Virus record (IMG/VR): IMGVR_UViG_3300045988_041457
Span: 1-42,351 of that record
Source: a virus
DNA: 42,351 bases
Reading direction: 5' to 3' (one strand)
Below are positions 2,050 to 35,900 of this stretch, one piece after another. A program made the translations under genes and the position numbers. A model generated the notes under the pieces. It saw only the letters and a program-made list of their open reading frames with translations, ran no database searches and had not been told where the DNA came from. Position 1 is the stretch's first letter; every line of letters starts with the position of its first letter.

Positions 2050-2123
2050 TAGTCGTTTTTAGTCGTTTGTGGTCGTTTTTGGTCGTTTTTAGGCATTTTC
2101 TATCCGAAGATGATAAATTATAC
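2050..2123 (+). promoter_or_regulatory. Class-2 composite motif, copy A: five 10-bp-phased boxes plus core
   Basis: The boxes are TAGTCGT (2050), TAGTCGT (2060), TGGTCGT (2070), TGGTCGT (2080) and TAGGCAT (2090), spaced exactly 10 bp apart. The core AAGATGATAAATTATAC (2107-2123) starts 17 nt after the last box. Confidence 0.6.
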
Positions 2124-2197
2124 CTTTTTGACTTTTGGTGCGAAATACGGATGTTTTCGAAAAAATTAACTTTTTTATTAAAAAATATAAAAAAAAG

Positions 2198-3045: not shown

Positions 3046-3049
3046 AAAA

Positions 3050-4722: not shown

Positions 4723-4726
4723 AAAT

Positions 4727-5532: not shown

Positions 5533-5555
5533 ACAACTAAAACAAAATAAAAAAA

Positions 5556-6671: not shown

Positions 6672-6673
6672 TT

Positions 6674-8567: not shown

Positions 8568-8573
8568 AAAAAT

Positions 8574-8686: not shown

Positions 8687-8700
8687 CTATTTTTATAGCC

Positions 8701-9591: not shown

Positions 9592-10340
9592 AAAAGACAG
9601 AATATTTGCAGATTCCGCAAGTGGCAAAAATGCTTACGGAAAATGAGAAGAAAGTAGTAAGAGCAAATGATGGAAAGCCGCTTTTGAAAGCGGAGGATTT
9701 TGAGATAGTTGAGGTGCTTGACAGAGCAGCATTGATGACCGGAACTGCGTGGTCGAAAACACAAAACGATTTGCGCCGAATTGTGGATTTCATCCGCGAT
9801 ATGTTCGGCAATCTTACGACAGATGATTTTGTCAATGCTTTCATGTTCCTATGTGCTGGCGAAATTGATATGTATTTGCCGGCGAATAGGTCAGGACAAC
9901 CGGACCGGAATTCTTACGGAACGTTTAACGAAGCATACATTGGCAAAGTTTTGCGCGCATATTCAAATTATTGCTATCAAGTATATCGTAAGATTAACTA
10001 TTATATGCCGCGAGCGCGAGTAACAGATATTGATGCTGGCAATGATGAAAGGCGCAATCACGAAAGAAACAGGCAGGAAAGAAACAGGAATGTGCTTAAT
10101 GAGTTTGAAACGTGGAAAAAAAGTGGAAATCTGGGATGTGATAATTTCGAAATTATTGTCATTTGGCAAGCACTTTATTCGCTTGGCTTGATACAAGGAC
10201 AGGAAGCGGGCGTTAATGATGTTGTCAATGCCGTTATGTGCAGCAAGAAAGACGAGAGGAGAATAAATGACATTAAGACAGCGTTTTCAGAAGTTGCAAG
10301 AAAAAAAATCAATTTACAGAATAAATTAAATGAGTTATGA
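9588..10340 (+). CDS. Hypothetical protein in the helicase-loader (lambda P-like) position
   Basis: Track ORF with ATGA overlaps to the initiator and to the RuvC-like gene. It has no Walker motif. The function is inferred from position only. Confidence 0.55.
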   Translation: MKKTEYLQIPQVAKMLTENEKKVVRANDGKPLLKAEDFEIVEVLDRAALMTGTAWSKTQNDLRRIVDFIRDMFGNLTTDDFVNAFMFLCAGEIDMYLPANRSGQPDRNSYGTFNEAYIGKVLRAYSNYCYQVYRKINYYMPRARVTDIDAGNDERRNHERNRQERNRNVLNEFETWKKSGNLGCDNFEIIVIWQALYSLGLIQGQEAGVNDVVNAVMCSKKDERRINDIKTAFSEVARKKINLQNKLNEL

Positions 10341-10897
10341 AAGAGATGCAGATTAACGCTATCATGGGCATAGACCCAGGAGCACAAGGTGGTATCGCGG
10401 TCTATATCGACGGAATGAACGTCAAAAGGCACAAAATGCCGAAAGACAATGAAGAATTGCGCGATTTGTTGAATTACTATCGTACGAACTTCAATTGCTT
10501 GGCGTTTCTGGAAAAATTATGCTTGCGTCCGGATGATGTGTCGGTTGATGGTGGAAAGAAGAACATGGGAAAGGCGTTCAGGATGCAGAAGATGTTAGCG
10601 AACTTCGAGCACCTGAAAGCGGTTCTGGAGATTATCGGAATGCCGTATGTGCTTGTGCATCCGATGTCATGGCAGTCAAGATTAGGTTTGCGAATCAAGG
10701 GAGAGGAAAAGAAAGAGAGGAAAGCGAGATACAAGGAAGAAGCGGAAAAGTTGTATGGTGGAAATGTTACGCTTTGGAATGCCGATGCGCTTTTGATAAT
10801 GCACTTTGGGCGACACATCCTCAAAAATGATGTAAAATGGTTGCTGAAGAACTTGCCGGAAAGGGAGCATGGGAAACTATTTGCCGATAATGGCTAA
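10337..10897 (+). CDS. RuvC-like Holliday-junction resolvase
   Basis: AIMGIDPGAQGGIAVY supplies the N-terminal catalytic Asp motif, AFLEK the Glu, and NADALLIMHFGRH the C-terminal Asp. Confidence 0.6.
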   Translation: MKEMQINAIMGIDPGAQGGIAVYIDGMNVKRHKMPKDNEELRDLLNYYRTNFNCLAFLEKLCLRPDDVSVDGGKKNMGKAFRMQKMLANFEHLKAVLEIIGMPYVLVHPMSWQSRLGLRIKGEEKKERKARYKEEAEKLYGGNVTLWNADALLIMHFGRHILKNDVKWLLKNLPEREHGKLFADNG

Positions 10898-10900
10898 AAA

Positions 10901-10965
10901 TAGGCGATTATAGCGACTTTTGAAGAAAAGATATATAATTTATCAATCGCGCGAAAAAACGCGCG
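10901..10965 (+). promoter_or_regulatory. Class-2 composite motif, copy B (upstream of dut)
   Basis: TAGGCGA at 10901-10907, TAGCGAC at 10911-10917 and core AAGATATATAATTTATC at 10928-10944. The hairpin CGCGCG-aaaaaa-CGCGCG spans 10948-10965. TAAAACGCAAATT and AAAATAACATG follow. The ATG lies 91 nt after box 1. Confidence 0.6.
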
Positions 10966-10991
10966 TAAAACGCAAATTTGGAGAAAATAAC

Positions 10992-11411
10992 ATGGAAGTA
11001 AAAGTTAAGAAAGTAATGGATTGTGCGGTTATGCCGGCCAAGGCGCACGCGGCAGATGCAGGATTCGATTTGAGGGCTTGCAAGGTTGAACGTGTCGGAT
11101 TCGATGAAATAGTATGTCATACAGGATTAGCCTTTGAAATTCCAGATGGACATGTCGGTTTGTTATTTCCTAGGAGTTCAATCGCACGGACTGCAATGAT
11201 GCTGAAAAATTCGGTCGGAGTTCTGGATTCTTGCTATCGTGGTGAAGTCACTTTCAAATTCCGTCAATTGGATAATGGAGACACGTATAATGTAGGCGAT
11301 AAAATAGGGCAAATTATTATAATGCCTTATCCGGAAATCATATTTGTCGAAAGTGATAATTTGAGCGATACGGAGCGCGGTGCTGGTGGCTATGGTTCGA
11401 CAGGCAGATAA
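10992..11411 (+). CDS. dut: dUTP diphosphatase (dUTPase)
   Basis: All five trimeric dUTPase motifs are present: AGFDL, PRSS, GVLDSCYRGE, GDKIGQIII and RGAGGYGSTG. Track ORF 10920 starts at TTG inside the upstream regulatory motif, so I prefer ATG 10992. Confidence 0.92.
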   Translation: MEVKVKKVMDCAVMPAKAHAADAGFDLRACKVERVGFDEIVCHTGLAFEIPDGHVGLLFPRSSIARTAMMLKNSVGVLDSCYRGEVTFKFRQLDNGDTYNVGDKIGQIIIMPYPEIIFVESDNLSDTERGAGGYGSTGR

Positions 11412-11439
11412 AAATTTTCGAAAATATTTTGCAAAAATG

Positions 11440-11512
11440 TTTGCAAATTAAAAAATAATGCTTAACTTTGTATCGGATTCAAGAAAGAATCACTGACAAG
11501 GCAGTTTCCTTG
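11440..11512 (+). promoter_or_regulatory. Class-1 promoter plus twin-hairpin leader, copy 4
   Basis: TTTG at 11440-11443, a 19-nt spacer, and TAACTTTG at 11463-11470. The hairpins are GATTC-aagaaa-GAATC (11476-11491) and CAAGG-cagttt-CCTTG (11497-11512). ATG at 11535. Confidence 0.75.
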
Positions 11513-11534
11513 AAACATTAAATTTTTAGAAATT

Positions 11535-11786
11535 ATGGATAATGTAAAAGTTATGAAAGTCGCTCGTTTGGCAAAGAACTTTTTGAGAATTGCAGATGAA
11601 TTGAATGAGAAAGTTTCAAGATATTTCAATGGTTCAAATGCTTCAGAAGATGTTAGAGCCTATGAGATGGTAAGGGAAGCAGATAAAAAGTTCGTGGATG
11701 GCCTGAATGATTTAGAGGATGAGCGTTATGAGTATGGCTTGAATTATGAACTTGCAGAATCTTTTTTGGATGGTTTTAATTTCTAA
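11535..11786 (+). CDS. Hypothetical acidic protein (83 aa)
   Basis: Track ORF preceded by promoter/leader copy 4. Confidence 0.65.
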   Translation: MDNVKVMKVARLAKNFLRIADELNEKVSRYFNGSNASEDVRAYEMVREADKKFVDGLNDLEDERYEYGLNYELAESFLDGFNF

Positions 11787-11797
11787 AATTTTGAGTT

Positions 11798-12058
11798 ATG
11801 AAAAGGTTTGAAGTTGGTAAAACTTATAGGATGGTAAGCCCTTGCGATACAAATTGCGCATGGTATTACACGGTAACAAAGAGGACTGCAAAAACAGTCA
11901 CTTTGTTGGATTTTGACAAAGAAGAAACGATTGTCCCGAGGTTGGCAGAAATGAAAGCGATTGACAGAGTAACGAGCATTGAAAGTGGCGAGGAATATTG
12001 CAAGCCGTTGGGCGATTTCTCGATGTGTCCTATTTTACGCGCTTCTAAAGATGTATAA
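11798..12058 (+). CDS. Hypothetical protein (86 aa)
   Basis: Track ORF with close spacing to its neighbours. Confidence 0.6.
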   Translation: MKRFEVGKTYRMVSPCDTNCAWYYTVTKRTAKTVTLLDFDKEETIVPRLAEMKAIDRVTSIESGEEYCKPLGDFSMCPILRASKDV

Positions 12059-12060
12059 TC

Positions 12061-12324
12061 ATGAGCGAGTTTGATGAATTGGTAAAGTTGGGAAAGTCGA
12101 AAGGCTGGGTGCTTTCCGAGATGTACCGAAATAAGGGTTATAAATTTGCGGCTTTCCGGATGGAAAACAAGAAAATGTTTTTCATGGTTCAAGATGGTAT
12201 GTTTAACGTGGGTTTTTATGGCTTTATTCCGGATAATCCTTTGGAGATTATGTTTAGGGATTGCGGAGATTCTTTAATATCGGTGGCTAGTTTGACCTTT
12301 GAGCAGATACAAAGTTTGATATAA
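12061..12324 (+). CDS. Hypothetical protein (87 aa)
   Basis: Track ORF starting 2 nt after the previous stop. Confidence 0.6.
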   Translation: MSEFDELVKLGKSKGWVLSEMYRNKGYKFAAFRMENKKMFFMVQDGMFNVGFYGFIPDNPLEIMFRDCGDSLISVASLTFEQIQSLI

Positions 12325-12330
12325 TATGAT

Positions 12331-12401
12331 TGCCTTATGGTGTAATGGTAGCACAAATGATTTTGGTTCATTTAGTTCCGGTTCGAATCCGGATAGGGTA
12401 A
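12331..12401 (+). tRNA. tRNA-Gln (anticodon UUG), no encoded CCA
   Basis: I folded the cloverleaf by hand. The acceptor pairs 12331-12337 with 12394-12400 (two G-U pairs, U1-A72). The D stem is gtgt/gcac with an aatggta loop. The anticodon stem is aatga/tcatt with loop tt-TTG-gt (U33, G37). The T arm is tccgg-ttcgaat-ccgga. Confidence 0.85.
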
Positions 12402-12429
12402 CAAAGAACAACCAAAAAACTGAAGTTGT

Positions 12430-13845
12430 ATGTATGTAAAAAAACTTGAATTGTTGAACTTCCAAGTAATCAAGGAATTCAACGCTAATTTTGACGGAAA
12501 CGTCTATTTGATTACGGGTGACAATGAGCTGGGTAAATCTACCTTGCTAAAGGCTATCGGTGCGCTTTTGACCGGAAACCGCGACAACGTTCTTCGAAAG
12601 GGAGAAAGTAAGGGATTTGCAAAGATGGTAGTAGGTGACGGAGGTGAGGAATACGAAGTTTCTCTAAACTTCACAGAGGCAAATCCGCGCGGAACGTTGA
12701 CCATTAAATCGAAGTCCGGCATGAAGTCGAATAACGTGTCAATGCTTCAGAGCATTTTCGGCTATCAAGATTTCGATGCAGTGGAGTTCTCCAGATGGAG
12801 TGAAACGGCAGAGGGAAGAAGAAAGCAGATTGAGGTGGTTAAAAAGTTGTTGCCGGATGCGGTAGTCAAGCGCATTGACGAAATCGACAATGAAATGGCG
12901 CAACTGAAAGATGAAAGACTATTCCTCAATCGTGATGTGAAGTCTTTGAAATCGGTGGTCGATGATGCGCGTAAAGGTCTCACGGATGCGGACATTCAGA
13001 AGTATTCTAAAAAAATCGACGTGTCGGACTTGATGCAGGAGCAGTCAAAGAGGCTTGCGCTGATTGAAAAGTCGAAATCTGTGAAGTCGATGATGGAGCA
13101 GAGGACGAGGGAACTTGCCGAATTGCCGGTACAGATGGAGGAAGAAAAACAGCATTATGACGAAGATTTGCTGAAAATCGCTGCAAAATTAGCAGAAGCG
13201 CAAAGGGTGTTCGAGATGGCGCAAAAGGAAGCGGAAATCGAAAAGAATAACAGAGTTGCGAAATATATGGCTTTTTTGGCTGACATGGAAAGCAAGAAAA
13301 CCGATTTGTCGCAAAGAAAGGAAAATGCGGAGAAATGGCTTGCAGACTTCGAAAAGCGCAACATTACCGCAGACGATTTGACGCAGAGGCTTGCACAAGC
13401 GGAGGAACACAACCGCAAGAGTGGTGAAGTGGCTACATATCTGGAGAAGTATGAATCATTGAAAGCGGCTGATGCAAAGGTGGAGGATGTCGAGACGCGC
13501 ATAGGGTCGCTTTCTGGCGAAAGGGCAGAACTGATAGCAAATTCACACCTGCCTATCGAGGGGCTTACGTTCTCGGATTCAGGCTTGGAATTGAACGGCA
13601 TTCCTTTCATGGCCGGAAATGTGTCAGATAGCCAGATAATGGAGGTTGCAACGAAATTGATAATCGCAAGTAATCCGAAAGTCAAGGTGTTCAGAATCGC
13701 AAGGGGTGAAAGTCTGGGAGAAAAGAGATTGGAAGCAATCGTTGACGTGGCGAAGAAAAATGGATTTCAAGGATTCATTGAGCAGGTTCAGAGAGGCCAG
13801 AATGACATGATTATCGAGGAATACACGGAGGCAAACAATGAATGA
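12430..13845 (+). CDS. SMC/Rad50/SbcC-like ATPase with a central coiled coil
   Basis: The N-terminal Walker A is LITGDNELGKSTLLKAIG. A long Glu/Lys/Ala-rich helical middle follows. The C-terminal ABC-like half (SDSQIMEVATKLIIA ... VFRIARGESLGEKRLEAI) resembles a signature plus Walker B region. Confidence 0.7.
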   Translation: MYVKKLELLNFQVIKEFNANFDGNVYLITGDNELGKSTLLKAIGALLTGNRDNVLRKGESKGFAKMVVGDGGEEYEVSLNFTEANPRGTLTIKSKSGMKSNNVSMLQSIFGYQDFDAVEFSRWSETAEGRRKQIEVVKKLLPDAVVKRIDEIDNEMAQLKDERLFLNRDVKSLKSVVDDARKGLTDADIQKYSKKIDVSDLMQEQSKRLALIEKSKSVKSMMEQRTRELAELPVQMEEEKQHYDEDLLKIAAKLAEAQRVFEMAQKEAEIEKNNRVAKYMAFLADMESKKTDLSQRKENAEKWLADFEKRNITADDLTQRLAQAEEHNRKSGEVATYLEKYESLKAADAKVEDVETRIGSLSGERAELIANSHLPIEGLTFSDSGLELNGIPFMAGNVSDSQIMEVATKLIIASNPKVKVFRIARGESLGEKRLEAIVDVAKKNGFQGFIEQVQRGQNDMIIEEYTEANNE

Positions 13846-14257
13846 CTATCAAGCGATAGGAATAGTTGACGACAGCGGCCATTTGCGTATGCCGATGGCC
13901 GATGTCAATGATTTTTTCCGCAAGCACAAGGGCGATAGAATCGTGGCGCGATTCATGGCTTATCCTAGGGGCTGTTCGGATGCCCTCAAAGGTTATTATT
14001 ATAACTATGTCGTACCGACAATGCGCCGCGCGTTGAATGACATGGGAGAAGCAAAGACGGATGCGGAAACTGACGTATATTTGCGCGAGGTGTGTCCGTT
14101 GCTACAATGTCAGCGGAAGATTGAGGATGGCTGGGATAGCAGGACGCTTGAAATAGAGGAATTGGGCGATAGGTTAATGATTGATTTCTTGGAGTGGTTA
14201 AAGATGTGGGGCGCGGAAAACATGTCAGTATATATTGAAGAACCAAAAATTTTATAA
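13838..14257 (+). CDS. Hypothetical protein (139 aa), translationally coupled to the ATPase
   Basis: Track ORF with an 8-nt overlap onto the ATPase gene. Confidence 0.6.
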   Translation: MNDYQAIGIVDDSGHLRMPMADVNDFFRKHKGDRIVARFMAYPRGCSDALKGYYYNYVVPTMRRALNDMGEAKTDAETDVYLREVCPLLQCQRKIEDGWDSRTLEIEELGDRLMIDFLEWLKMWGAENMSVYIEEPKIL

Positions 14258-14259
14258 TT

Positions 14260-14436
14260 ATGAGAAAGATTGATTTTAAGGAGTATGATAGTTACACCTA
14301 CAAGGAAGCAGGGTTCTCGTACACAAGCACAAATTTCGATGAGGTTATGGGTTTGTTGAAAGAGCGAAAGAAAGGGGTTGTGTACGGCAACAAGCTAAAT
14401 GGAGATGTCAACATCTTGGATGGAATAATGGAATAA
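14260..14436 (+). CDS. Small hypothetical protein (58 aa)
   Basis: This ORF is below the track cutoff. ATG 14260 lies 2 nt after the previous stop. The ORF ends just before the regulatory motif at 14444. Sequence: MRKIDFKEYDSYTYKEAGFSYTSTNFDEVMGLLKERKKGVVYGNKLNGDVNILDGIME. Confidence 0.45.
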   Translation: MRKIDFKEYDSYTYKEAGFSYTSTNFDEVMGLLKERKKGVVYGNKLNGDVNILDGIME

Positions 14437-14443
14437 GCTAAAT

Positions 14444-14508
14444 TAGGCGATTTTAGCGACTTTCTTCAAAAAGATGATAAATTGTATTACTTCGCCGAGA
14501 AAGTCGCT
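14444..14508 (+). promoter_or_regulatory. Class-2 composite motif, copy C
   Basis: TAGGCGA at 14444-14450, TAGCGAC at 14454-14460 and core AAGATGATAAATTGTAT at 14471-14487. A 10-bp perfect inverted copy of box 2 (AGCGACTTTC at 14455-14464, GAAAGTCGCT at 14499-14508) brackets the core. TAAAACGCAAATT and AAAATAACATG follow. The ATG lies 91 nt after box 1. Confidence 0.6.
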
Positions 14509-14534
14509 TAAAACGCAAATTAAATAAAAATAAC

Positions 14535-14723
14535 ATGAAAACAATCGAATTGAATTATCCGCCGTCTGTTGCGGTTGAGTACGTTCGGAATTGGATTGCA
14601 GTTCTGGACAAGTTCAAGGACGCTACAATCGAACAAAAGGCAATTGTCGCAGATTTGTTGACGCTTGCAATGTTGGCCGAAAAGGCTTTGACACCGCAAG
14701 AGAAGAAAACTAATGAAAACTAA
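14535..14723 (+). CDS. Hypothetical protein (62 aa)
   Basis: Track ORF preceded by class-2 motif copy C and the conserved AAAATAACATG start context. Confidence 0.6.
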   Translation: MKTIELNYPPSVAVEYVRNWIAVLDKFKDATIEQKAIVADLLTLAMLAEKALTPQEKKTNEN

Positions 14724-14735
14724 AAAACAAGTATC

Positions 14736-15185
14736 ATGGAGAAGAAATTTGAACTTAAAAAGGTTGTGCGCAACCGCGTTGAAATTGATTGCAAGTACAT
14801 CATGACGGAGACAAACGATGATGGAATTAGGACAATCAAGGAAAATCATGTAAAGGATTCGAGGGCTATTCATGATGATTTGAAGGCTTTGTTTGACAAG
14901 TTGAAGCCGATAGTCGCAGGCATATTCCGGTGGGAATGTCTTGACGATGTTGAGGTAGCCGGATTCGCACTTGCCGGAAAGAATGATAATATCGGAGTGA
15001 CGATTCTTGGCCAGTACATGACGACGCATGGAGAGGCTAAATTCAAATCACCGCGAATCAAATACGCTGTCGGAGAAAGTCCGGAATGTGCTGATTTGAC
15101 AGTCATAATCAATGATTTCGTCCGTGAAATGGAATTGTATCTGTTTCATGACAAAACGGCCGAAATGGGCACATTTGGCGAGTAA
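14736..15185 (+). CDS. Hypothetical protein (149 aa)
   Basis: Track ORF. Confidence 0.65.
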   Translation: MEKKFELKKVVRNRVEIDCKYIMTETNDDGIRTIKENHVKDSRAIHDDLKALFDKLKPIVAGIFRWECLDDVEVAGFALAGKNDNIGVTILGQYMTTHGEAKFKSPRIKYAVGESPECADLTVIINDFVREMELYLFHDKTAEMGTFGE

Positions 15186-15617
15186 ATGAATACTTTTCTT
15201 ATAGATAGTCGAGTTTTGTATGATTATGCTCGTTCACGAGGCTATGAGCCTTTAATTGATACGCGGTTTTTCCGAATGGAAATAGGCTTGCGAAAAGAAT
15301 TGCAACGGGAAAGGTTCGGGAACGGGCATACGCCTAGCGAGAACGAGCGGTTCTATCGCTTCATGTGGGAGAATAAGCCTCACTATTGCGAGGAATGTAT
15401 GCGGCCTTTGTCCGAGTATTCGGCGGTCTATGTGTCTCACATATTGACCAGAGGGGCGAATCCGGACATGGCACACGATGCAAGAAACGTCAATATCTTG
15501 TGCTTCAGACATCATGCGGAATGGGAGAATGGAGAGAGAGAAAAGATGCGGATTTGGGCAAAGAATCAAGCGACTATTGAGGAATTGAAAAAGGATTACA
15601 AACAAACAAGCAAGTAA
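15186..15617 (+). CDS. HNH endonuclease
   Basis: CEEC ... VSHILTRGANPDMAHDARNVNILCFRHHAEWENG gives the His-Asn-His core with flanking Cys/His zinc ligands. Confidence 0.6.
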   Translation: MNTFLIDSRVLYDYARSRGYEPLIDTRFFRMEIGLRKELQRERFGNGHTPSENERFYRFMWENKPHYCEECMRPLSEYSAVYVSHILTRGANPDMAHDARNVNILCFRHHAEWENGEREKMRIWAKNQATIEELKKDYKQTSK

Positions 15618-15848
15618 ATGAAACCAATTGAATTTGACGGCGCAAATTGCGTTTATGGTAAAGAGCAACCCGAATATCAGCCATTACCTGCCAATAAAGG
15701 CAACGACGGTACGGTTGTTACCTGTTGGCAATTGGAACCGGGCGATTTGGAACGCATAAAGGAAACGGGGTGCGTTTGGTTGTCAGTTCTAACATTCAAT
15801 GAAGCATTGCAACCAGTTTTGTTGCTTACCGAAAATCCGAGTTTATGA
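15618..15848 (+). CDS. Hypothetical protein (76 aa)
   Basis: Track ORF starting directly after the HNH stop. Confidence 0.6.
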   Translation: MKPIEFDGANCVYGKEQPEYQPLPANKGNDGTVVTCWQLEPGDLERIKETGCVWLSVLTFNEALQPVLLLTENPSL

Positions 15849-15919
15849 GAACAACGGAATCGAAACAATATGAACCCGATAACACGGGAAAGAATGTCTA
15901 ATGTTAAAAGAAAAATAAA

Positions 15920-16330
15920 ATGAATCTTGTTTTACTAAAAGGAAGTGTCGGACATGACGCAAAGATTACTAACTTTGAGGGTGGCGGAAAGGTGGCTCAG
16001 TTCTCACTTGCCACGACTGAAAGAGGTTACACCAAAAAGGACGGAACAAAGGTTGAACCTACGACCGAATGGCACAATGTGGTAGTGCGAAATTCAGGTC
16101 TTGCCGGAGTATGCGAGCAGTACGTGAAGAAAGGAACTTCCTTGCTTGTGCAGGGCAAAATACAAACGAGAGAATGGACGGGCAACGATGGAGTGACAAA
16201 GAGAATAAACGAGATTATCGCCAGCAATTTGGAGTTGCTTCCTGGCGGCCAGAAACGCGAGAGTGCACCGGCGCCGATGCCGGATAGTATGCCACAGGGC
16301 GAAGTGAAAGATGATGATATGCCATTTTAA
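15920..16330 (+). CDS. ssb: Single-stranded DNA-binding protein
   Basis: The OB-fold SSB pattern is present (NLVLLKGSVGHDA...FSLATTE...TEWHNVVV...YVKKGTSLLVQGKIQTREW). There is a Gly/Pro-rich linker and the acidic tail DDDMPF. Confidence 0.92.
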   Translation: MNLVLLKGSVGHDAKITNFEGGGKVAQFSLATTERGYTKKDGTKVEPTTEWHNVVVRNSGLAGVCEQYVKKGTSLLVQGKIQTREWTGNDGVTKRINEIIASNLELLPGGQKRESAPAPMPDSMPQGEVKDDDMPF

Positions 16331-16338
16331 TTAACCGA

Positions 16339-16362
16339 TAGCACGGGCATTTGTCCGTGCTA
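16339..16362 (+). terminator. Hairpin / weak terminator after ssb
   Basis: TAGCACGG-gcatttgt-CCGTGCTA forms an 8-bp stem. Only a weak T tract (aaatttg) follows. Confidence 0.45.
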
Positions 16363-16375
16363 AATTTGATAAATT

Positions 16376-16888
16376 ATGCAGATTAACAATATCGAATATA
16401 ATGCAGAATTGCATGAACAGTACAAGTGTCTTTCGATACCTCAACCGATAGCGGATTGGATGACAAAATTAGAATACATGGACGAAAACGGAGAATTTCA
16501 CGCGCGTAAAGAGGTTGAAATCCGTTCTAGGAATGTCAAGCACAGGGGCGATGTATTGATTTGTTCATCTAAATTTCCGGAAGTGGCTGGATGTGATTGC
16601 GGTGTTACCTTGGGGCTAGTCGAATTATATGATGTCAAACGTGTAGCAGATTTCACAGATGAGGATTGGTCGAAAACGGCATTGCCGAAATCGGAATGGG
16701 TGCGAAAGACCGGATATGGTTATTTCTTCCGCAATCCGCGTCCGGTGGTGGAAATGCCGGTAAAGGGTATGCTAGGTTTCTATAAGATAACGTTACCGAA
16801 AGGCGATATAACCGAATATCCACGATATTTAGAGGTTGGAGAAAGAGAATGGAGAAAAATAAATCACAAATTTTTTCAAAAAAAATAA
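16376..16888 (+). CDS. ASCH (PUA-like) domain protein
   Basis: LSIPQPIADWM ... KEVEIRSRNVKHRGDVLICSSK ... LGLVELYDV matches the ASCH pattern (SIxQPWA ... E.R ... RG.llI.asK). Confidence 0.5.
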   Translation: MQINNIEYNAELHEQYKCLSIPQPIADWMTKLEYMDENGEFHARKEVEIRSRNVKHRGDVLICSSKFPEVAGCDCGVTLGLVELYDVKRVADFTDEDWSKTALPKSEWVRKTGYGYFFRNPRPVVEMPVKGMLGFYKITLPKGDITEYPRYLEVGEREWRKINHKFFQKK

Positions 16889-16896
16889 AGGAATTG

Positions 16897-16969
16897 TTTG
16901 TAAATTAAAAATAAATGATTACCTTTGTATCGGATTCAAGAACGAATCACTGACAAGGCAGTTTCCTTG
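16897..16969 (+). promoter_or_regulatory. Class-1 promoter plus twin-hairpin leader, copy 5
   Basis: TTTG at 16897-16900, a 19-nt spacer, and TACCTTTG at 16920-16927. The hairpins are GATTC-aagaac-GAATC (16933-16948) and CAAGG-cagttt-CCTTG (16954-16969). ATG at 16992. Confidence 0.75.
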
Positions 16970-16991
16970 AAACATTAAATTTTTAGAAATT

Positions 16992-17417
16992 ATGGAAAAG
17001 ATTTTTGACAAAAAGTATACATTCTCTTTTATAGCACCTAGCAATGTTATCGAGGAAATTAAGTCAGACATGAGATTTTCAACATTTGTTAAGGTAAGCG
17101 AGACCTCTAACATATTCAGGCCGAGCATCCAGATGCGCTTTTGGTGCGGTTCTGGGGAACATTGCAGTATGGATGTAATTGGCTATGACAAAAAGGCTAT
17201 GGAGGGCTTGCATGAGTTTATCAAGCGAAATGAGGCGGTTGTGGAAACCACCGACATTACGGCAACAGATGCTTCGGATATATTGGTAACATATATGAGC
17301 GAAGTTCGAAAAATTGAATGGAACAATTTAATTTGCAAACATACCTCAAGAATCCCAACAGGGGAATTGTCACGAGAGACGGAAGAAGTGCGAGGATTAT
17401 TTGTACACAGAGGTTAG
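16992..17417 (+). CDS. Hypothetical protein (141 aa)
   Basis: Track ORF preceded by promoter/leader copy 5. Its last 100 nt overlap the next ORF in another frame. Confidence 0.55.
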   Translation: MEKIFDKKYTFSFIAPSNVIEEIKSDMRFSTFVKVSETSNIFRPSIQMRFWCGSGEHCSMDVIGYDKKAMEGLHEFIKRNEAVVETTDITATDASDILVTYMSEVRKIEWNNLICKHTSRIPTGELSRETEEVRGLFVHRG

Positions 17418-17689
17418 ACGATAATTATCAAGTGCTTGCACTTGTAAACAATGAAGATTATGAAGCATGTTATAGTTATACGACATTTGGGAAGTTATCT
17501 ACAAATCAAAGTTTAAATTGTGAACTCGATTTATTCTTCGCGCCAGAAAAGAAGAGTGGTTGGATAAATATATACAAAGATGACGATATTGCCTATGCTT
17601 CTATGGACATATTTAAGACTAAGAAGAAGGCTGAATCTGCAAGTTGTAGTACTTGTATCGCAACAGTTAAAATCGAATGGGAGGAATAA
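17318..17689 (+). CDS. Hypothetical protein (123 aa)
   Basis: Track ORF. A TGA lies in its frame immediately upstream of ATG 17318, which fixes the start. Confidence 0.55.
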   Translation: MEQFNLQTYLKNPNRGIVTRDGRSARIICTQRLDDNYQVLALVNNEDYEACYSYTTFGKLSTNQSLNCELDLFFAPEKKSGWINIYKDDDIAYASMDIFKTKKKAESASCSTCIATVKIEWEE

Positions 17690-17691
17690 TT

Positions 17692-17925
17692 ATGACAATA
17701 GAAGAAAGGGCAGATGCTTATGTGGGGCATCCTGAAGAAATTGATGAATTTACATCAGCGACAATAAAAAGAGATGCATATATTCGTGGAGCAAAAGAGC
17801 AGAAAGCAATTGACATTGACAATGCTTGTAGCATCTTATGCCGTAATGTATGCCCATACAACTCTAACCAATGCAATGCCAAGTGCGAAACTTGGGAAAT
17901 GTTTAGAAGAATGATGGAGGAATGA
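17692..17925 (+). CDS. Hypothetical Cys-rich protein (77 aa)
   Basis: Track ORF 17677..17925. ATG 17692 lies 2 nt after the previous stop and 7 nt after GGAGG (17680-17684). Either start is possible. Confidence 0.55.
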   Translation: MTIEERADAYVGHPEEIDEFTSATIKRDAYIRGAKEQKAIDIDNACSILCRNVCPYNSNQCNAKCETWEMFRRMMEE

Positions 17926-18082
17926 TTATGTACGTAATTCTTGGGTTAATATATCTTGGAGTTGCAAAAATTATGTCAGATTCAGTGTAGATGGAATAGA
18001 GATTAATTATGTTCATGAATTCCAGCATTACTTGCGTCTGGTGAATTTGTCCGATTATGCAAACAGCTTAAAAATATAGAAT

Positions 18083-18613
18083 ATGGCAAAGATAATTTAT
18101 AAAGAGGGTTTCGAGGGGCAGAACCATTTGGAATGTATCGAGGGAATAGAGATAGGTCTTGAAAACGGAAGAAAGGCACTGATATTCCCTAAATACGCAT
18201 GGCGCAAGGTATTACGTAAGAATTTCGATTTGGAGGATTGGGATTCGGAAGAAATGACAATAAAGCAAGCGATGGCAAGTGACGGAGAGGCGGATAATGA
18301 GGAATTGTACCGGATAAGCAGTCCGGCAGAAATGTTCGTATGCGCGTTCATGACCGACAAATGGGGCTTGAGGGATTTGCCCGATTTGCGTCTGGCGGTA
18401 GAGATTCAGAAACAACGGATGGAGATAGACAAGCAGGCGGAGAAGATTGTAGGAGCGGACTTGTTGAGGGAATATCGTGGAGGTATCTGGTCTTGCGCTC
18501 GTGCATCTGGAGATAGTTGCTATATTGCACTATTTGACAAGACAATCTTTTCGGCTGATATTGTATGTAACGAACACATATGCGTGCCTTGTGTATTGAA
18601 TTATAACGATTGA
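18083..18613 (+). CDS. Hypothetical protein (176 aa)
   Basis: Track ORF. The C-terminal pattern GIWSCARASGDSCYIALFD...VPCVL is loosely DUF1566-like, which is weak evidence. Confidence 0.6.
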   Translation: MAKIIYKEGFEGQNHLECIEGIEIGLENGRKALIFPKYAWRKVLRKNFDLEDWDSEEMTIKQAMASDGEADNEELYRISSPAEMFVCAFMTDKWGLRDLPDLRLAVEIQKQRMEIDKQAEKIVGADLLREYRGGIWSCARASGDSCYIALFDKTIFSADIVCNEHICVPCVLNYND

Positions 18614-18616
18614 GTT

Positions 18617-19207
18617 ATGAAAAATTACATGAAAGACAAATACGACTTGCCGATTGAGATTGATTCGGTGCTTTGGGAAGTCGTAAGGATGTGCGAAAGC
18701 ACGACCGGAAAGGAAGTCATTTTGCGCAATTCCGCAGAGAAGAATAAGTGTCAATTGTTTTTTAAGTATGGAATAAAAGACTTATATACGCCCATTATTG
18801 ACGCGATAAAGGCACGTCTGGGCGATAGAATCATTGAAGCGTATGATTTTTCGTTTATGTGTGTCGGAATGGTTGAATTCAAGTTAGTAGATTGCGATTT
18901 TCCGCAAGAACTGGGAGACATAAACAAGAAGTGGAAAGATGATGAGGATGAGGGCAACACATACGCGCACAAATTACAAGAGGTGAAAGCGATTAAGGTA
19001 GAACGCTACAATGCCGAAAGATTGATTAACTTTGTAGGCGGCGGACAAATGACGATAACGAGGGCCGGAACGGCAGTATTCTCGTTCCTCAACAATGGAG
19101 TAGCCTATCTGGACGCGCCGGAGCATGATTACGTTGTACGTGTCGGAGAATCAAGATTCAAGGTTGTGCCGGAAAAGGATTTTGAAAAAGAATGGGAGTT
19201 GAAATGA
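18617..19207 (+). CDS. Hypothetical protein (196 aa)
   Basis: Track ORF starting 3 nt after the previous stop. Confidence 0.65.
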   Translation: MKNYMKDKYDLPIEIDSVLWEVVRMCESTTGKEVILRNSAEKNKCQLFFKYGIKDLYTPIIDAIKARLGDRIIEAYDFSFMCVGMVEFKLVDCDFPQELGDINKKWKDDEDEGNTYAHKLQEVKAIKVERYNAERLINFVGGGQMTITRAGTAVFSFLNNGVAYLDAPEHDYVVRVGESRFKVVPEKDFEKEWELK

Positions 19208-19455
19208 GTAATCAAGAGATAATCGAATGCTCGTATTTGAGTTTGGGAGAAATGCGATTCTTTGATGAATCAATGGATGCGGCAATAGTCGGATGTGCGG
19301 ATGGAAAGCCCGTCTATGACTTCGTGAAAATGGTCGAAATCCTACAAAATACGGGCATAGACAGAATGGATGCAGAGGATTTCATAAGCGACAATTATTA
19401 CGGCTTGTATGGCGCGGAAACGCCGATAATAATGCGTTCTATTAAGGATATGTAA
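19204..19455 (+). CDS. Hypothetical protein (83 aa)
   Basis: Track ORF 19192..19455. The in-frame ATG 19204 gives an ATGA overlap with the upstream stop. Confidence 0.55.
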   Translation: MSNQEIIECSYLSLGEMRFFDESMDAAIVGCADGKPVYDFVKMVEILQNTGIDRMDAEDFISDNYYGLYGAETPIIMRSIKDM

Positions 19456-19467
19456 AAACAAAAAAAT

Positions 19468-20127
19468 ATGGGAATGGTATATCGAAAGTTGGCGGATTTG
19501 GTGGAGAATCCAGATAATCCGCGAAAGTCCACGCCGGAGGGAATCATGGAATTAGCCAAAAGCATAGCGGACAATCCCGATTTCTTTGAAGCGCGTCCGA
19601 TTTTGTTGTCTGATAGGACGGGAGTTCTGATGATTATCGGCGGTGAACAAAGAAGCAAAGCGGCGCGAAGTCTGGGCATGGAGGAAGTTCCGACAATTTT
19701 GTTTTCCGGCATATCGGAGGAACGCGAGCGAGAAATCATGATTCTAGACAATACACACAGAGGTGAATGGGATTATGAGGCTCTGAATCATTCTTGGGAT
19801 AAGGATAAGTTGGAATCGTGGGGAGTTGACGGTTATTATCTGGGAGAGTTCGAAAAGAAAATGACCGATGAAGAATTTGAAAAAAAGTTCAATGCAATAA
19901 CCGATAAAGATGCTTTCTATCCAATAATTCCGCAATATGATGAAAAGCATGAAATCTTTATAATTGTTTCAGATTCGGAGCAACAAAGCAACCATTTGCG
20001 CGAATTGCTGAACATGCAGAAGATGAAGTCGTACAAATCAGATAAAGTCATTAAGTCAAACGTAATTTCAATAGATGATGCAATTAGAGCCATTAAAAAT
20101 TGTAATTCCGAGTTACAAGAGAGCTGA
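19468..20127 (+). CDS. ParB-like nuclease (ParB/Srx) domain protein
   Basis: The N-terminal sequence is NPDNPRKSTPEGIMELAKSIADNP...ARPILLSD...IIGGEQRSKAARSLGMEEVP. This matches the ParB N-terminal domain pattern, including the GGxxR box. Confidence 0.7.
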   Translation: MGMVYRKLADLVENPDNPRKSTPEGIMELAKSIADNPDFFEARPILLSDRTGVLMIIGGEQRSKAARSLGMEEVPTILFSGISEEREREIMILDNTHRGEWDYEALNHSWDKDKLESWGVDGYYLGEFEKKMTDEEFEKKFNAITDKDAFYPIIPQYDEKHEIFIIVSDSEQQSNHLRELLNMQKMKSYKSDKVIKSNVISIDDAIRAIKNCNSELQES

Positions 20128-21447: not shown

Positions 21448-21475
21448 TTGCATTGTTTGGTACCTAGAATAGAAT

Positions 21476-21515
21476 TTCTCCGTGAAGATGATATATTTAT
21501 TATCTTTGCGGAGAA
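21476..21515 (+). promoter_or_regulatory. Class-2 core-only copy F upstream of terS, bracketed by an inverted repeat
   Basis: Core AAGATGATATATTTATT at 21485-21501 overlaps TATCTTTG at 21501-21508. The flanking inverted repeat is TTCTCCG (21476-21482) and CGGAGAA (21509-21515). There are no upstream TAGNCGA boxes. Confidence 0.4.
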
Positions 21516-21565
21516 AATCGCTTTAAGGCGATATTTTGAATTTTTAATATCTAAAGAGTAAAGAT

Positions 21566-23727: not shown

Positions 23728-23771
23728 TAGGCGATTCTAGGCACTTTCGATGAAAAGATGATAGATTATAC
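23728..23771 (+). promoter_or_regulatory. Class-2 composite motif, copy D (downstream of terL, upstream of 23887)
   Basis: TAGGCGA at 23728-23734, TAGGCAC at 23738-23744 and core AAGATGATAGATTATAC at 23755-23771, with the same 10-nt and 17-nt spacings. Confidence 0.55.
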
Positions 23772-23801
23772 CATTTCGAAAAAATAACCGAATATGAGTC
23801 A

Positions 23802-23870
23802 TTTTAGGAAAAATTAATATCTTTGCATTTAGTACGGCAATGGGTGAGCCGTTAAGATAAAATATTAACG
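23802..23870 (+). promoter_or_regulatory. Promoter-like -7 box and structured leader upstream of 23887
   Basis: TATCTTTG at 23818-23825 with only a weak TTTT at about -33. The leader hairpins are ACGGC-9nt-GCCGT (23834-23852) and CGTTAA-9nt-TTAACG (23850-23870). Confidence 0.45.
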
Positions 23871-23886
23871 TTAAATTTTTTACATT

Positions 23887-32143: not shown

Positions 32144-32907
32144 AAATAGGTAAGCACACGTTGAAAATATACGATAGCATTGAAGAACTGCCAATCGTGC
32201 GATTCCACAAGTACCAAAAATTTTTGCTTGTGGATTCCGGCATTGGCGGAACGATAACGCAGTTTGACCAGAGGATAGAAATTATCCGGCGGTTCTTGAT
32301 GCTGGGAGACAATGAAAAGGCACAAAAGGAAATTGAGAATTTGCGTCAATGCGTTTATATGATTCAATCTGAATTGTCGCCGCGTCACTTGGCATTTGCC
32401 GCATTGGTCGCTGAAATTGACGGCAAGCCATGCGAGGACTTGTCAGATGATTCGCTTAAACGTGTTATCGAGCAGTTAAATGATGCTTCCGGAAAAGAGT
32501 TCTCCGACCTTATAGGTGGGTGCAAAAAAAAAATAGATACGGAACTAGTCGCATATTTTCCGGCATTGTTCGATAATTCAGAAGTCAAAGAGTATTACGG
32601 ACTGATGAAAATGAGAATATCTGCAATACTTGACAATATCATGCGTGGGGTTGTGCAACCGGACAAGACTAAATCCGTTGACGATATAACAACAAAACTT
32701 ATAACGTACAGCAATCCTCAAACATTTTCTGGAAGTGAAAACGCGGAAATCACATTTGACAAAGAATTTGAGAATTTGTGCTTGTTGTTGTCGAGTGAAT
32801 TGCATGTAAAGCCGAAAGATTTTTCAGTTTTGGAGTTCTACAATGCTTTCACATATCTACAAGAAAAGGCGAAGAAGTCCGAAAGGGCGCAAAATAGGCG
32901 CAAATAG
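32131..32907 (+). CDS. Hypothetical protein in the tail-assembly-chaperone position
   Basis: Track ORF immediately upstream of the tape measure gene. I found no slippery site or frameshift product. Confidence 0.55.
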   Translation: METLKIGKHTLKIYDSIEELPIVRFHKYQKFLLVDSGIGGTITQFDQRIEIIRRFLMLGDNEKAQKEIENLRQCVYMIQSELSPRHLAFAALVAEIDGKPCEDLSDDSLKRVIEQLNDASGKEFSDLIGGCKKKIDTELVAYFPALFDNSEVKEYYGLMKMRISAILDNIMRGVVQPDKTKSVDDITTKLITYSNPQTFSGSENAEITFDKEFENLCLLLSSELHVKPKDFSVLEFYNAFTYLQEKAKKSERAQNRRK

Positions 32908-32939
32908 CGACTTTTGACGGCCGAGCAATATAATTTATG
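32895..32939 (+). promoter_or_regulatory. Class-2 composite motif, copy E (upstream of the tape measure gene)
   Basis: TAGGCGC at 32895-32901, TAGCGAC at 32905-32911 and a degenerate core GAGCAATATAATTTATG at 32923-32939. AAAATAACATTATG lies at the start codon. Confidence 0.5.
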
Positions 32940-32989
32940 CTTTTTGTGTTTTAGGTTCGAAATAGGGCACTTTTAAGAAAAATAACATT

Positions 32990-35900
32990 ATGGACAATCC
33001 GAATCCGATTAAATATTCCGACTTGATTAGTCCGGACAATAGTATAACTGACTTGATAGCGCAATTAACCGCGTTGATTTCAAAGTACGAGGAAGCGAGG
33101 TCGAAGATTCAGACCGCCGCGGCTGATATGTCGAAAGGCTTGCAGAATGTGTCTGGAGCGACCGAGCAACAACGGCAAGCGATAACGCAAGCATATCAAG
33201 AGACCGAAAGGCTTGCAGAACAATATAGGCGCGTAACGAGCGAGGAACAAGCGGCACGACGGCAGAAAATAGCATTATCGCAAGCGTCAAGGGAGCAAAC
33301 GCAAATCGACAAATTGGTAGTGCAACTTAACAAGTCGCAAGAGGGGGCGTATAATAGGCTATCAGCCCTATATCGGTTGAATAAAATTCGACTGAACGAA
33401 ATGAGTTCCGCCCAGAGAGCCGGAACGGAAGCAGGGCGGCAACTTGAAAGGGAAACTAGGGCGATATATGAGGAGATGTCGTCTTTGCAGAAAGCAACAG
33501 GCAAATATACGCTTGAAGTAGGACATTATGAGAACGCATTACGAGCATTGCCAGGTCCACTTGGGCAAGTATCATCTGGATTGATTGGCTTGCGCGATAA
33601 TTTGAACAATATCAATTCATCCGGATTGCCTACTTCGGTGAAGTGGTTTTCAAAATTCGCTATTGGTGTAGGGCTTGCGATTAATGGGGTTCAATCCTTG
33701 TTTAGAGGATTGCGAAGCGGCGTAAATACGATTGCAGACTTCGAGCAAGCTAATGCGAATCTGTCAACAATCCTAGGCGTTAACGTAAGAGACATGAAAG
33801 CGTTGACGGATAGTGCCTTGTCATTGGGTAGAGCGACTGAATACACTGCATCACAAGTAACGCAATTGCAGACGGAATTGGCTAAATTGGGCTTCGGCCA
33901 AGGTTCGATTCTGTCAATGCAGAAATATATCTTGCATTTCGCAACGGCAATGGGTGTGGACTTGGGAGAAGCGGCGGAAGTGGCAGGCTCCACTTTGCGT
34001 TCATTTAACTTGTCGAGCAAGGACACGGAAGATGCGCTGTCTGTTCTTGTCGAGGGCGCGAACAGGTCTGCATTGAGTTTTGAAAAGTACAAGACGTCAA
34101 TCGGCATAGTCTTTCCGGTGGCGAAAACTTTTGGATTCTCGTTGCGTGATGTTGTCGCTTTGCTTGGTTCGTTGGCGAATGCCGGATTTGACGCTTCAAT
34201 GGCAGCAACCGCAACGCGAAATATTCTTTTGAATTTGGCCGATGCAGGTGGAAAATTGGCACAAAAACTTGGCGAGCCGGTAAAGACATTTGATGACCTT
34301 TTCGATGGTCTTATCAAGTTGAGAAAAGGGGGCATTGACCTTGCGGAAGCCTTGGAACTCACCGACAAGCGAAGCGTATCGGCGTTTTCTACTTTCCTAG
34401 AGGGAGCAGAAAGTGCAAAGACCTTGCGCGCCGAATTGGAAAATGTTTCTGGTGTCTTGGAAACAATAGCTGGAGAGCGTCTGGAGACGGTCGAGGGTTC
34501 AACGAAATTGCTTGAATCGGCGTGGGAGGGGTTGATTTTGTCGTTCCGTAATTCCGCCGGAGTTATCAAAACTTTGATTGACCAACTGACCAGCCTAACT
34601 ACTAGCCTGACAAATTTATTGTTCCCGAAACAAGCGCAATCGGCGGCGACTTATGATGAGTATTTTGCAAAATTCACCGATTATTATGCGAAAGAGGGTG
34701 GAAAGAAAACACTTGACGCGATGGATACGTTTATCAACCAATATATCGCACATGTGGAAGCCTTGGAGAAGATTCAAGCGCGAGAACCGAAGTTTACCGG
34801 ATGGCTGGGTATCGGGAAGCCTTACAAGGATTATCGAAAGGCTTTGGACACGTTGAAAGATATACGCAAAGCGGAAGCGGCGGTGCGCGAGCAGATAGAA
34901 GCAGATGAAAGGGCAGCGGCGGAAGAACGAGCACGGCAAGAGGAAAAAGAGAATCAAGACAATATCGAAAGAGTTAAGCAGGAGACGGAAAAGGAGCGGA
35001 AAATTCGAGAAAAGGCAGAAGCGAAAAGAAAAGCGGATGCGGAAAAGGCCGAAAGGGCACGTCAAAAAGCAGAGGAACAAGCACGTAAGGATGCGGAAGC
35101 TAGGGATAAAGCAGAAAAGCAAGGACGGATAAATAGCCTACAAGCCGAGCAGCAAGCAATACAATTGCAAATAGCAATTACGGAAGAGGGTTCACAAGAA
35201 ATGCTGAAATTGCGTCTTGAATTGATAGAGAAGCAACGCGCTTTGGAATTGGAGAAGAACAGGCAAGCGTCGGAGAATTTAAGGCAAGATGAGAAATTGA
35301 TTAATGCGAAGTACGACAAATTGTTGCTAAAGTCTGAAACTGAATTCAACAACAAATTGGCCGAACGCGATTTGAAAGCGCAAAGGGAATTGGCCGAAAG
35401 CGAATTTGAGTTGCAGAATCACACAGAAAGGCAAAAGACTATCTTCAGATTGCAACAAGAAAAGGCGCGTCTTAAAGCGGTGCTGAAATTAAACGAGACT
35501 GCATCCGAGAAGTTGAAGGATGATGAGGTACAGACTATCAAGAATACTATCAAGAAGATAGGGCAGGAGGTGTCGGAAGTAGGCTACAAGGACATTTGGG
35601 ATTTGCTGGGAATAAGGGCAACGAGCGGACAAAAAGATGCGTTTAACGAGGTTGCCAATTCAGTTGCGGATACGATAGGTTCGATTGTCGATTCGTGGCA
35701 GAAAGCGGCGGATGCGGCGGTAGAAAGCGCGGAGAAACAAGTGGAAGCCGCGAAATCAGTTCTTGACGCGGAGATTGAAGCGCGAAACAACGGATATGCT
35801 AATAATGTGGAACAAGCGCAAAAGGAATTGAATTTGCGCAAGAAGCAACAAGCGGCGGCATTGGCTGAACAGGAAAAAGCGCAAAGGGCACAATTGGCGA

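Follow-up and report, generated by a model that had tools for sequence, protein, structure and literature searches.

Promoters of the Bacteroidetes σA type reportedly carry a −33 TTTG and a −7 TAnnTTTG separated by a spacer of 19–21 nt. In the lambda CII-dependent promoters (pRE, pI and paQ) and in the PhoB pho-box, direct repeats phased by about 10–11 bp lie at or next to a poor −35 and the activator sits on one face of the helix, and in T4 the MotA box is a single copy at −30 that replaces the −35. The element studied here belongs to the IMG/VR virus record IMGVR_UViG_3300045988_041457 (positions 1 to 42,351, all 42,351 nucleotides of which are called the window), by its appearance a roughly complete 42-kb siphophage genome with a Bacteroidota host, in which a non-coding cassette of roughly 90 bases, composed of phased boxes and a core, precedes six gene blocks (copies A–F). 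The composite has, in our judgement, about an even chance of being a promoter cassette of a second class, recognised by host RNA polymerase that carries its primary (σA-type) sigma factor, and a promoter-like function at the DNA level is the best reading because the cassette is co-directional with the genes, keeps a fixed distance to the ATG, has one copy (A) lying behind terminators, recurs in a promoter-poor structural half and carries a dyad that flips.

The cassette would resemble the canonical Bacteroidetes σA promoters in layout and spacing (TTTC/TTTG, 18–22 nt, TA..TTT) and in its A/T-rich spacer, and it lies about as far from the start codon as the six canonical promoters of the genome do, but its −33 is mostly TTTC, its −7 is imperfect save in copy F and the second unit of copy D, a dyad lies in its spacer and phased GC boxes abut its −33. 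By analogy, copies A to E are comparable with the CII and PhoB promoters in having helically phased direct repeats beside a defective −33, whereas their repeats lie just upstream of the −33 instead of straddling or replacing it and number up to five. As with the T4 MotA/AsiA middle promoters, a phage-specific class would be scattered before early and later genes and combine a good −10 with a non-host upstream element, although the hosts differ in the type of their sigma factor, and no sigma factor, MotA/AsiA homologue, CII-like protein or OmpR/PhoB-type protein was detected among the scanned window proteins (of some 57 predicted proteins, 40 were scanned with PHROGs and about 44 with Pfam, some small open reading frames with one library only and a few with neither). 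The late promoters of P2 Ogr and Mu C/Mor and the Cro/CI-type operators over a −10 likewise have an imperfect dyad per regulated promoter and a small phage DNA-binding protein as presumed ligand; in contrast to the Ogr and C/Mor sites at −55 or −43, the dyad of the cassette would have its place in the spacer, over part of the −7. The RNase III sites of the T7 group and the promoter-stem-loop (PeSL) cassettes of T4-like phages are also repeated, co-oriented intergenic units of about 50–100 nt with stem-loops before genes, but only two of the six window copies fold significantly, F with a 19-bp and C with a 12-bp stem, where RNase III sites would call for a stable stem of about 20 bp at every site, and stems range from 7 to 19 bp with a loop sequence that flips. 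Stoperators of the mycobacteriophage cluster A kind, asymmetric repressor sites that keep one orientation to transcription and are numerous within operons, are not matched either, the core being found in both orientations and in 6 copies only, all within longer intergenic cassettes.

The motif is real, non-random and conserved. The box pair TAGGCGNNNNTAGSNNCTTT matches exactly at 10901, 14444, 23728 and 32895, always on the + strand, where 0.27 matches are expected and four were reached in none of 100 shuffles; the 17-mer core AAGATGATAAATTATAC is found with at most three mismatches at 2107, 14471 and 23755, and AAAATAACAT has three occurrences, each immediately before a start codon (copies B, C and E; 0.39 expected). 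A first-pass annotation, made from the letters alone, had placed the composite motif at these positions and had described two boxes exactly 10 bp apart, which is borne out in copies B to E; copy A, for which two boxes were also claimed, has five, at the same start-to-start distance of exactly 10 bp. AAGAT begins 17 nt past the start of box 2 in copies A to D, and the 12-mer of B and E, which is reversed, does not fit the earlier core consensus in register. Other details of that annotation were right, namely the perfect 10-bp inverted copy of box 2 in copy C (14455–14464 / 14499–14508) and the colinearity of B and C, which are 78% identical over about 95 nt, whereas the core of copy F, said to be bracketed by an 8-bp inverted repeat, sits in a 19-bp stem, TTTCTCCGTGAAGATGATA / TATTATCTTTGCGGAGAAA (z = -6.7).

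All genes of the window lie on the + strand, in the order lysis (1–1.9 kb), early and DNA-metabolism (2.3–21.4 kb), terS/terL, head, tail, tape measure and fibres. Every copy is co-directional with the genes and lies 45–120 nt upstream of an ATG. The genes named in the first-pass annotation as following the motif were confirmed: the dUTPase gene (dut) follows copy B, an operon from 14535 with a 62-amino-acid (aa) protein, HNH endonuclease and SSB follows C, the gene of a 216-aa 'major head protein' PHROG at 23887 follows D and the tape measure gene follows E; terS follows F. Copy A is found in the early module, B and C in the DNA-metabolism module and F, D and E in the structural module, and a purely 'late' label does not fit copies spread in this way.

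In the proposed anatomy, two TAGNCGN boxes (five in A), with 10-bp phasing and a T/A tract behind each, would occupy about −38 to −56; the T-run that follows box 2 would be a weak −33; the spacer would carry an imperfect dyad (AAGATGATA-N3-4-TATCATCTT-like) with its better half on either strand; and a −7-like box (TACCTTTT, TATCTTTG, TACCATTT or TATCA(T)TTG) would stand immediately 3' of the dyad centre, so that the core probably lies in the spacer and overlaps the −7. A leader of about 40–45 nt (TTAAAACGCAAATT ... AAAATAAC) leads up to the start codon and is replaced in A and D by a second similar unit. The −33-like element reads TTTG in B and E and TTTC in the other four copies, the spacer from −33 to −7 measures 20 nt in A, C and D, 22 nt in F and 18–19 nt in B and E, and the resulting arrangements (TTTC-20-TACCTTTT in A, TTTC-22-TATCTTTG in F, TTTG-18/19-TA.. 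in B and E) are close to the geometry of the six canonical promoters. Against TAnnTTTG, the −7 boxes of copy F and of the second unit of D (both TATCTTTG) score 6/6 and that of A (TACCTTTT) 5/6; the register is good for A and F and fair for the others, which is supportive of a promoter without proving one. The earlier view that the core lacks a −33 and has TAAATTAT as its −7 turned out to be a mis-registration, as TTTC or TTTG is present and the core has a better −7 candidate directly on its 3' side, and an initial register with box 2 as −33 and TAAATTAT as −7 was replaced in light of close relatives. Given the weak −33 and the imperfect −7, initiation would need a protein or DNA curvature at the phased upstream repeats, and the spacer dyad overlapping the −7 would be bound by a dimeric phage DNA-binding protein responsible for timing. 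Recorded here are the anatomy, non-randomness, strand, position and conservation of the cassette; that it is an active promoter, that it depends on a factor and which factor this would be are what we infer.

Relatives of the window were collected through terL (80 from IMG/VR and 80 from metagenomes) and closer ones through the 79-aa HTH-like (helix-turn-helix) protein and the head protein. Distant kin, at about 64% nucleotide identity, include Parabacteroides phage PDS1 (L181), Bacteroides and Alistipes phages and Elizabethkingia phage TCUEAP2 (L182). Seven close relatives (L183–L189), whose loci jointly cover the orthologues of all six copies, have the same boxes and carry A–F at orthologous places, always on the + strand and without additional copies. 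Conservation of the cassettes is on a par with that of their flanking genes, with identities of 91% against 86% and 76% for B, 90% against 87% for F, 85% against 85% for E, 80% against 83% and 77% for D, and 82% against 79% and 86% for C; substitutions in D and E are concentrated in two places, the 5' half of the spacer and the stretch that separates the units, and the boxes, T-run, core and −7 region are fixed. In copy A, GATGATAAATTATACCTTT is unchanged in L183 and L185 although the number of boxes is three and two there, and L183 has TATCATTTG and TACCATTT as the −7-like boxes of B and C. A change of TG to CA in copy F of L188 converts two wobble pairs to Watson-Crick pairs, and the box pair of F is largely kept in L186–L189, with a box sequence that differs at 1–2 positions and an invariant GGCGAT arm.

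Among relatives with 60–70% terL identity, which include PDS1 and TCUEAP2, the copies C (before a 62–76-aa gene), D (head) and E (tape measure) persist with a recognisable core and different GC boxes. The conservation in relatives that was to be checked according to the first-pass annotation is therefore found, as core and cassette in distant relatives and as the whole composite in close ones. The gene-proximal unit of relatives at D has a GCGA box pair arranged as GCGATTTAACGCGATTTTT-N13-perfect −7 box TACATTTG, and L101 has GCGG-N6-GGCGG, 21 nt and TATATTTG; both support the association of a box pair with a −7 box. The gene order near the cassettes is colinear in all relatives examined. The exact box pattern gave 20 single matches in IMG/VR, none followed by the core, and these were taken as chance. 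An additional copy with a three-tier hairpin was observed in L006, L015, L017 and other relatives, about 6.8 kb past terL and before a gene for a 170-aa tail protein (MGILNDL..., the MGIL family); the window has no spacer at this site, and in L001, L003 and L011 the stems are retained there with the core replaced.

The core is best described as an imperfect dyad AAGATGATA-N3-4-TATCATCTT with one strong half (ATGATAA), because the 12-mer is inverted within colinear flanks and its spacing is independent of orientation. The 12-mers of B (ATATAATTTATC, 10933–10944) and E (ATATAATTTATG, 32928–32939) are the reverse complement of those in C and A (GATAAATTGTAT / GATAAATTATAC), with D oriented like A and C; both orientations share one centre, and a profile built from relatives matches the minus strand of B. 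L001–L030 have a reversed tape-measure copy and L031/L045 a forward one, most relatives have the forward form after terL (D site) where L008/L010 have the reversed form, and the dyad centre lies 27.5 nt from box 2 and 53–61 nt from the ATG whichever the orientation. In L101 the dyad is a perfect 9-4-9 palindrome, AAGATGATA-AATG-TATCATCTT. Such a core would fit recognition on duplex DNA rather than in RNA, and the flipping argues against an RNA sequence signal. A small upstream open reading frame from the core ATG (MINYPS...) was rejected, as it has a frameshift in L017 and a stop in L002 with the downstream DNA still conserved, and the reversed copies cannot encode it.

Six canonical promoters (TTTG, 19–20 nt, TAnnTTTG) were identified, with −7 boxes at 2222, 3247, 3783, 11463, 16920 and 20855, all in the early and middle region; the structural or late region of the window has no canonical TTTG/TAnnTTTG promoter, and its only promoter-like sites are F, D and E. 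The window, PDS1 and TCUEAP2 have copy A behind the late terminator and L185 has it behind three tandem terminators, and this copy therefore cannot rely on read-through RNA. In PDS1 and TCUEAP2 an A-type cassette is found past the late terminator and ahead of the first early promoter; in the window the second unit of A is followed by a canonical early promoter (TTTG 2198–2201 / TACCTTTG 2222–2229), a layout seen again in PDS1 (L181 1700–1830) and TCUEAP2 (L182 22800–22920). The promoter class with upstream regulator sites proposed in the first-pass annotation agrees with the strand, position, conservation and late-region promoter gap found here and with the place of copy A behind terminators, and disagrees in its anatomy of a one-way −7 core. 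The interpretation is partly supported, and the observation behind it is partly confirmed.

Terminator-like hairpins that share the conserved loop GTTGTGAAAT(G) and T-runs after them were observed at 2018–2046 and 3176–3202 of the window, 7835–7870 of L183 and 7105–7320 of L185, and one to three of them stand in tandem upstream of cassette A in relatives. The canonical early promoters (3225–3317, 11440–11534 and 16897–16991, also 3762–3852 and 2198–2300) have the form TTTG-19-TAACTTTG/TACCTTTG with a near-identical spacer AAATTAAAAA(A)TAA(A)TG and are presumably the 'first motif class' of the first-pass annotation; a conserved leader of about 60 nt, GTATCGGATTCAAGAAnGAATCACTGACAAGGCAGTTTCCTTGAAACATTAAATTTTTAGAAATTATG, lies downstream of them and may be a structured 5' untranslated region. 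The features of the six cassettes and of the candidate regulator are listed in Table 1.

Table 1. Positions and composition of the cassette features and of one candidate regulator gene in the window.
Feature	Positions	Strand	Composition	Basis
Copy A boxes	2050..2096	+	Five boxes, starts 2050, 2060, 2070, 2080 and 2090: TAGTCGT x2, TGGTCGT x2, TAGGCAT; T-tract after each	read directly
Copy A promoter-like unit	2097..2128	+	TTTC 2097–2100; 20-nt spacer with core AAGATGATAAATTA 2107–2120; −7-like TACCTTTT 2121–2128	
Copy A second unit	2141..2175	+	GAAATACGG..TTTTCGAAAAAATTAAC, 3' end TAACTTTT (2167–2174)	
Candidate regulator, 79 aa	5142..5381	+	Probably Cro/C1-type HTH; conserved across the phage group	
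Copy B box pair	10901..10917	+	TAGGCGA / TAGCGAC; kept in L183, L184 and L185	
Copy B unit	10919..10948	+	TTTG 10919–10922; 18-nt spacer with reversed core ATATAATTTATC 10933–10944; −7-like TATCAATC 10941–10948	
Copy B leader	10948..10994	+	Hairpin CGCGCG-A6-CGCGCG; block TAAAACGCAAATT 10966–10978; AAAATAAC, then dut ATG (10992)	
Copy C box pair	14444..14460	+	Identical in L183	
Copy C unit	14461..14492	+	TTTC 14461–14464; 20-nt spacer with forward core AAGATGATAAATTG 14471–14484; weak −7-like TATTACTT 14485–14492	
Copy C 3' part	14499..14537	+	Inverted box 2 copy GAAAGTCGCT 14499–14508; block TTAAAACGCAAATT; AAAATAAC, then ATG (14535); 12-bp stem, z = -5.4	
Copy F unit	21475..21516	+	19-bp dyad/hairpin; TTTC 21475–21478; half-site GAAGATGATA 21484–21493 in 22-nt spacer; canonical −7 TATCTTTG 21501–21508; before terS	
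Copy F palindromic box pair	21517..21532	+	ATCGCTTTAAGGCGAT, 3' of the −7 box	read directly
Copy D unit 1	23728..23776	+	Boxes TAGGCGA / TAGGCAC; TTTC 23745–23748; 20-nt spacer with core AAGATGATAGATTA; −7-like TACCATTT 23769–23776	
Copy D unit 2	23795..23886	+	GAGTCATTTT..AAAAATTAA; TATCTTTG 23818–23825; conserved leader hairpin CGGCAATGGGTGAGCCG; then 216-aa head-protein gene	
Copy E unit 1	32895..32943	+	Boxes TAGGCGC / TAGCGAC; TTTG 32913–32916; 19-nt spacer with reversed core ATATAATTTATG 32928–32939; −7-like TATGCTTT 32936–32943	
Copy E unit 2	32962..32992	+	ATAGGGCACTTTTAAGAAAAATAAC, then tape measure gene ATG (32990)	

The TAG of box 2 in copy E doubles as the stop codon of the gene at 32131–32907. 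The leader hairpin before the 216-aa head-protein gene, ACGGCAATGGGTGAGCCGT (window 23826–23886; L181 25100–25177; L182 3030–3101), is kept as GGC-AAAGGGNNAGCC in all relatives, PDS1 and TCUEAP2 included.

Several observations weigh against reading the cassette as a regulated σA promoter. The −7-like boxes of C, B, E and the first unit of D match TAnnTTTG at just 3–4 of 6 positions or need a 3-nt gap, a threshold relaxed enough to admit A gives 53 matches in the window, mostly in coding DNA, the −33/−7 register is ambiguous in the more distant, rumen-type relatives (TTTG-20-TAAATTAC in orthologues of C, for instance) and the MGIL family has no TA at the expected −7 place. The 5' arm of the strong hairpins of F, C and the MGIL family would fall upstream of any start site, the placement in early, middle and late modules is odd for one temporal class, and neither an activator nor a sigma factor was found by Pfam, PHROGs and PDB sequence searches of window proteins.

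Other readings of the cassette were weighed with these points in mind. The dyad and the boxes could form only an operator or regulator platform at which phage proteins, such as the 79-aa HTH protein, repress, insulate or modulate transcription from other promoters, without initiation at the cassette; the tolerance of the dyad to inversion and its perfect form in L101 agree with this, as do the overlap of the dyad of F with a canonical −7 box, the classic place of a repressor, the inverted box copies downstream in C, F and the MGIL family, and a small HTH-like protein conserved wherever the cassette occurs. A pure operator, however, does not need strict co-orientation and a fixed distance to the ATG, and the structural genes (21.5–42 kb) would be left with no promoter-like site but the −7-only boxes at F and D, both of them parts of cassettes, so that this account is regarded as unlikely. 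Quite unlikely, in our view, is a class of strong promoters that depend on no phage activator and in which the phased repeats of GC box and T-tract are intrinsically curved, UP-like DNA offsetting the weak −33. It would explain the T/A-tracts at 10-bp steps ahead of A (five times), B and E, whose 10-bp periodicity in G+C is above the 99th percentile for the window, the range of two to five boxes at A, and the GC parts that differ among the copies of one genome in distant relatives (CCCCGG, GCCCGG, GGCCC, GGACGC) with the A-tract phasing kept; but C and D have no significant periodicity beyond their two boxes, and the boxes of B–E are near-identical (TAGGCGATTNTAGCGAC) in the window and close relatives, beyond what curvature needs.

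An element acting in RNA, that is, a hairpin with the AU-rich core in its loop serving as an intercistronic processing or stability site like the T7 RNase III sites, or as an attenuator in read-through mRNA, is given only a small chance. The folds of F and C are strong, as are those of the L101 tape-measure copy (z = -3.7) and of four MGIL-family copies (z = -3.9 to -5.1), stem sequences vary between phages (in L018 GGACGTTAAGCG / CGTTTAACGTCC, for example) with some compensatory changes, three MGIL stem pairs being altered in both partners, and for 14 of 19 MGIL copies the better fold is that of the sense strand, which in three of the 14 leans on 5–9 G·U pairs. Yet this strand bias is within background, since 55% of random windows favour the + strand (standard deviation 4.7 kcal), the RNAalifold covariation term for the MGIL stem is about 0, copies A, B, D and E fold no better than shuffled sequences (z -1.4 to +1.0), the two orientations of the 12-mer mean a changed RNA sequence at the same duplex site, and copy A stands behind strong terminators. 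An Rfam 15 scan (E up to 1) gave a tRNA as its sole credible match and nothing at the cassettes. Action as a terminator, which the first-pass annotation had named as a refuting outcome, finds no + strand call at A, B or C in a scan of positions 1–20,000, in which two weak minus-strand calls both fell in the leader of B; the stems of C, F and the MGIL family, judged by eye, have no T-run or U-tract after them and are not intrinsic terminators. The hairpins may offer further inverted sites for proteins or add a second layer of control in read-through RNA. It would be most surprising if the cassettes were recombination or mosaic-boundary repeats without a regulatory role, mediating module exchange or spread by duplication: they do lie at module junctions and B and C are alike within one genome, but orthologous copies stay in place with gene-level conservation over long divergence and among colinear flanking genes.

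For the regulated promoter cassette, candidates for a regulator were sought among the phage proteins. The 79-aa protein is a reasonable candidate for the dyad, nothing more; it is 45% identical to PDS1 gp12 (annotated as an HTH regulator) and 46% to a TCUEAP2 protein, and its gene precedes the exonuclease gene in the window, PDS1 and TCUEAP2. Members of its family show sub-threshold matches to HTH_26 and HTH_31, and its structure model has five helices (pLDDT 80), with a best Foldseek match against the PDB at E 0.97, which is not significant, in a list of mostly Cro/CI-type repressors; both candidate HTH proteins of the first-pass annotation (5142–5381 and the 144-aa product of 7369–7803) have no family assignment above threshold. 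A PDS1 gene annotated as 'RNA polymerase sigma factor' was set aside, as it lacks Pfam support; it lies directly upstream of terL, the position of terS in the window, but is not detectably related to the window terS (tblastn, 0 of 22 core-negative loci). Within 10 kb on either side of terL, an AAA ATPase, a 76-aa acidic protein and terS alone differ between loci with and without the core, and none is regulator-like. The protein before terS (20914–21447) was rejected as a late activator, having just weak similarity to the C-terminal domain of an MgsA-like ATPase, and by eye no IHF-type or DnaA-box consensus fits.

Further features of these genomes were recorded. A tRNA-Gln (anticodon TTG) lies at 12331–12402 in the spacer before the AAA-ATPase gene, and the operon of cassette C includes an HNH endonuclease gene (15186–15617), with small genes of unknown function on one side and SSB on the other. 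The genes at 7800–8567, 19468–20127 and 20075–20824 encode a DNA methyltransferase, a ParB_N-domain protein and, in an overlapping frame, a TET-associated glycosyltransferase (TAGT); together they suggest hypermodified DNA bases, and no TET/JBP dioxygenase was identified. The terL reading frame of L101 (2824–5334) encodes 836 aa against 513 aa in the window and has an N-terminal fusion or insertion, since the match (85% identity) is limited to residues 74–513, and in PDS1 (L181 23502–25054) terL is annotated as two coding sequences 92 nt apart.

Full-text literature searches gave no description of the motif, and the second, regulated promoter class that the cassette most likely represents is expected biology, yet not described for these phages. 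More tentatively, and with low probability, the cassettes may be the first regulated non-canonical promoter class of widespread Bacteroidota siphophages, with hosts from Bacteroidales to Flavobacteriales, run by an unrecognised phage factor system in which one protein would read the phased repeats that replace a proper −33 (as in sigma appropriation or with CII) and a dimer would read the strand-flipping dyad, some promoters being nested in a conserved hairpin loop so that read-through and local RNA differ in structure. Were the cassette an ordinary weak σA promoter with curved upstream DNA, its value would be mainly for annotation. Very little is known about how gut Bacteroidota phages time their gene expression, and a position-conserved cassette offers a concrete target for start-site mapping, for a regulator search and for phage-derived Bacteroides expression parts, with Parabacteroides phage PDS1 and Elizabethkingia phage TCUEAP2 as cultured phages that carry it; it would also allow better operon annotation for the related phage genomes in metagenomes, which number in the thousands, with 3,902 relatives for the head protein alone.

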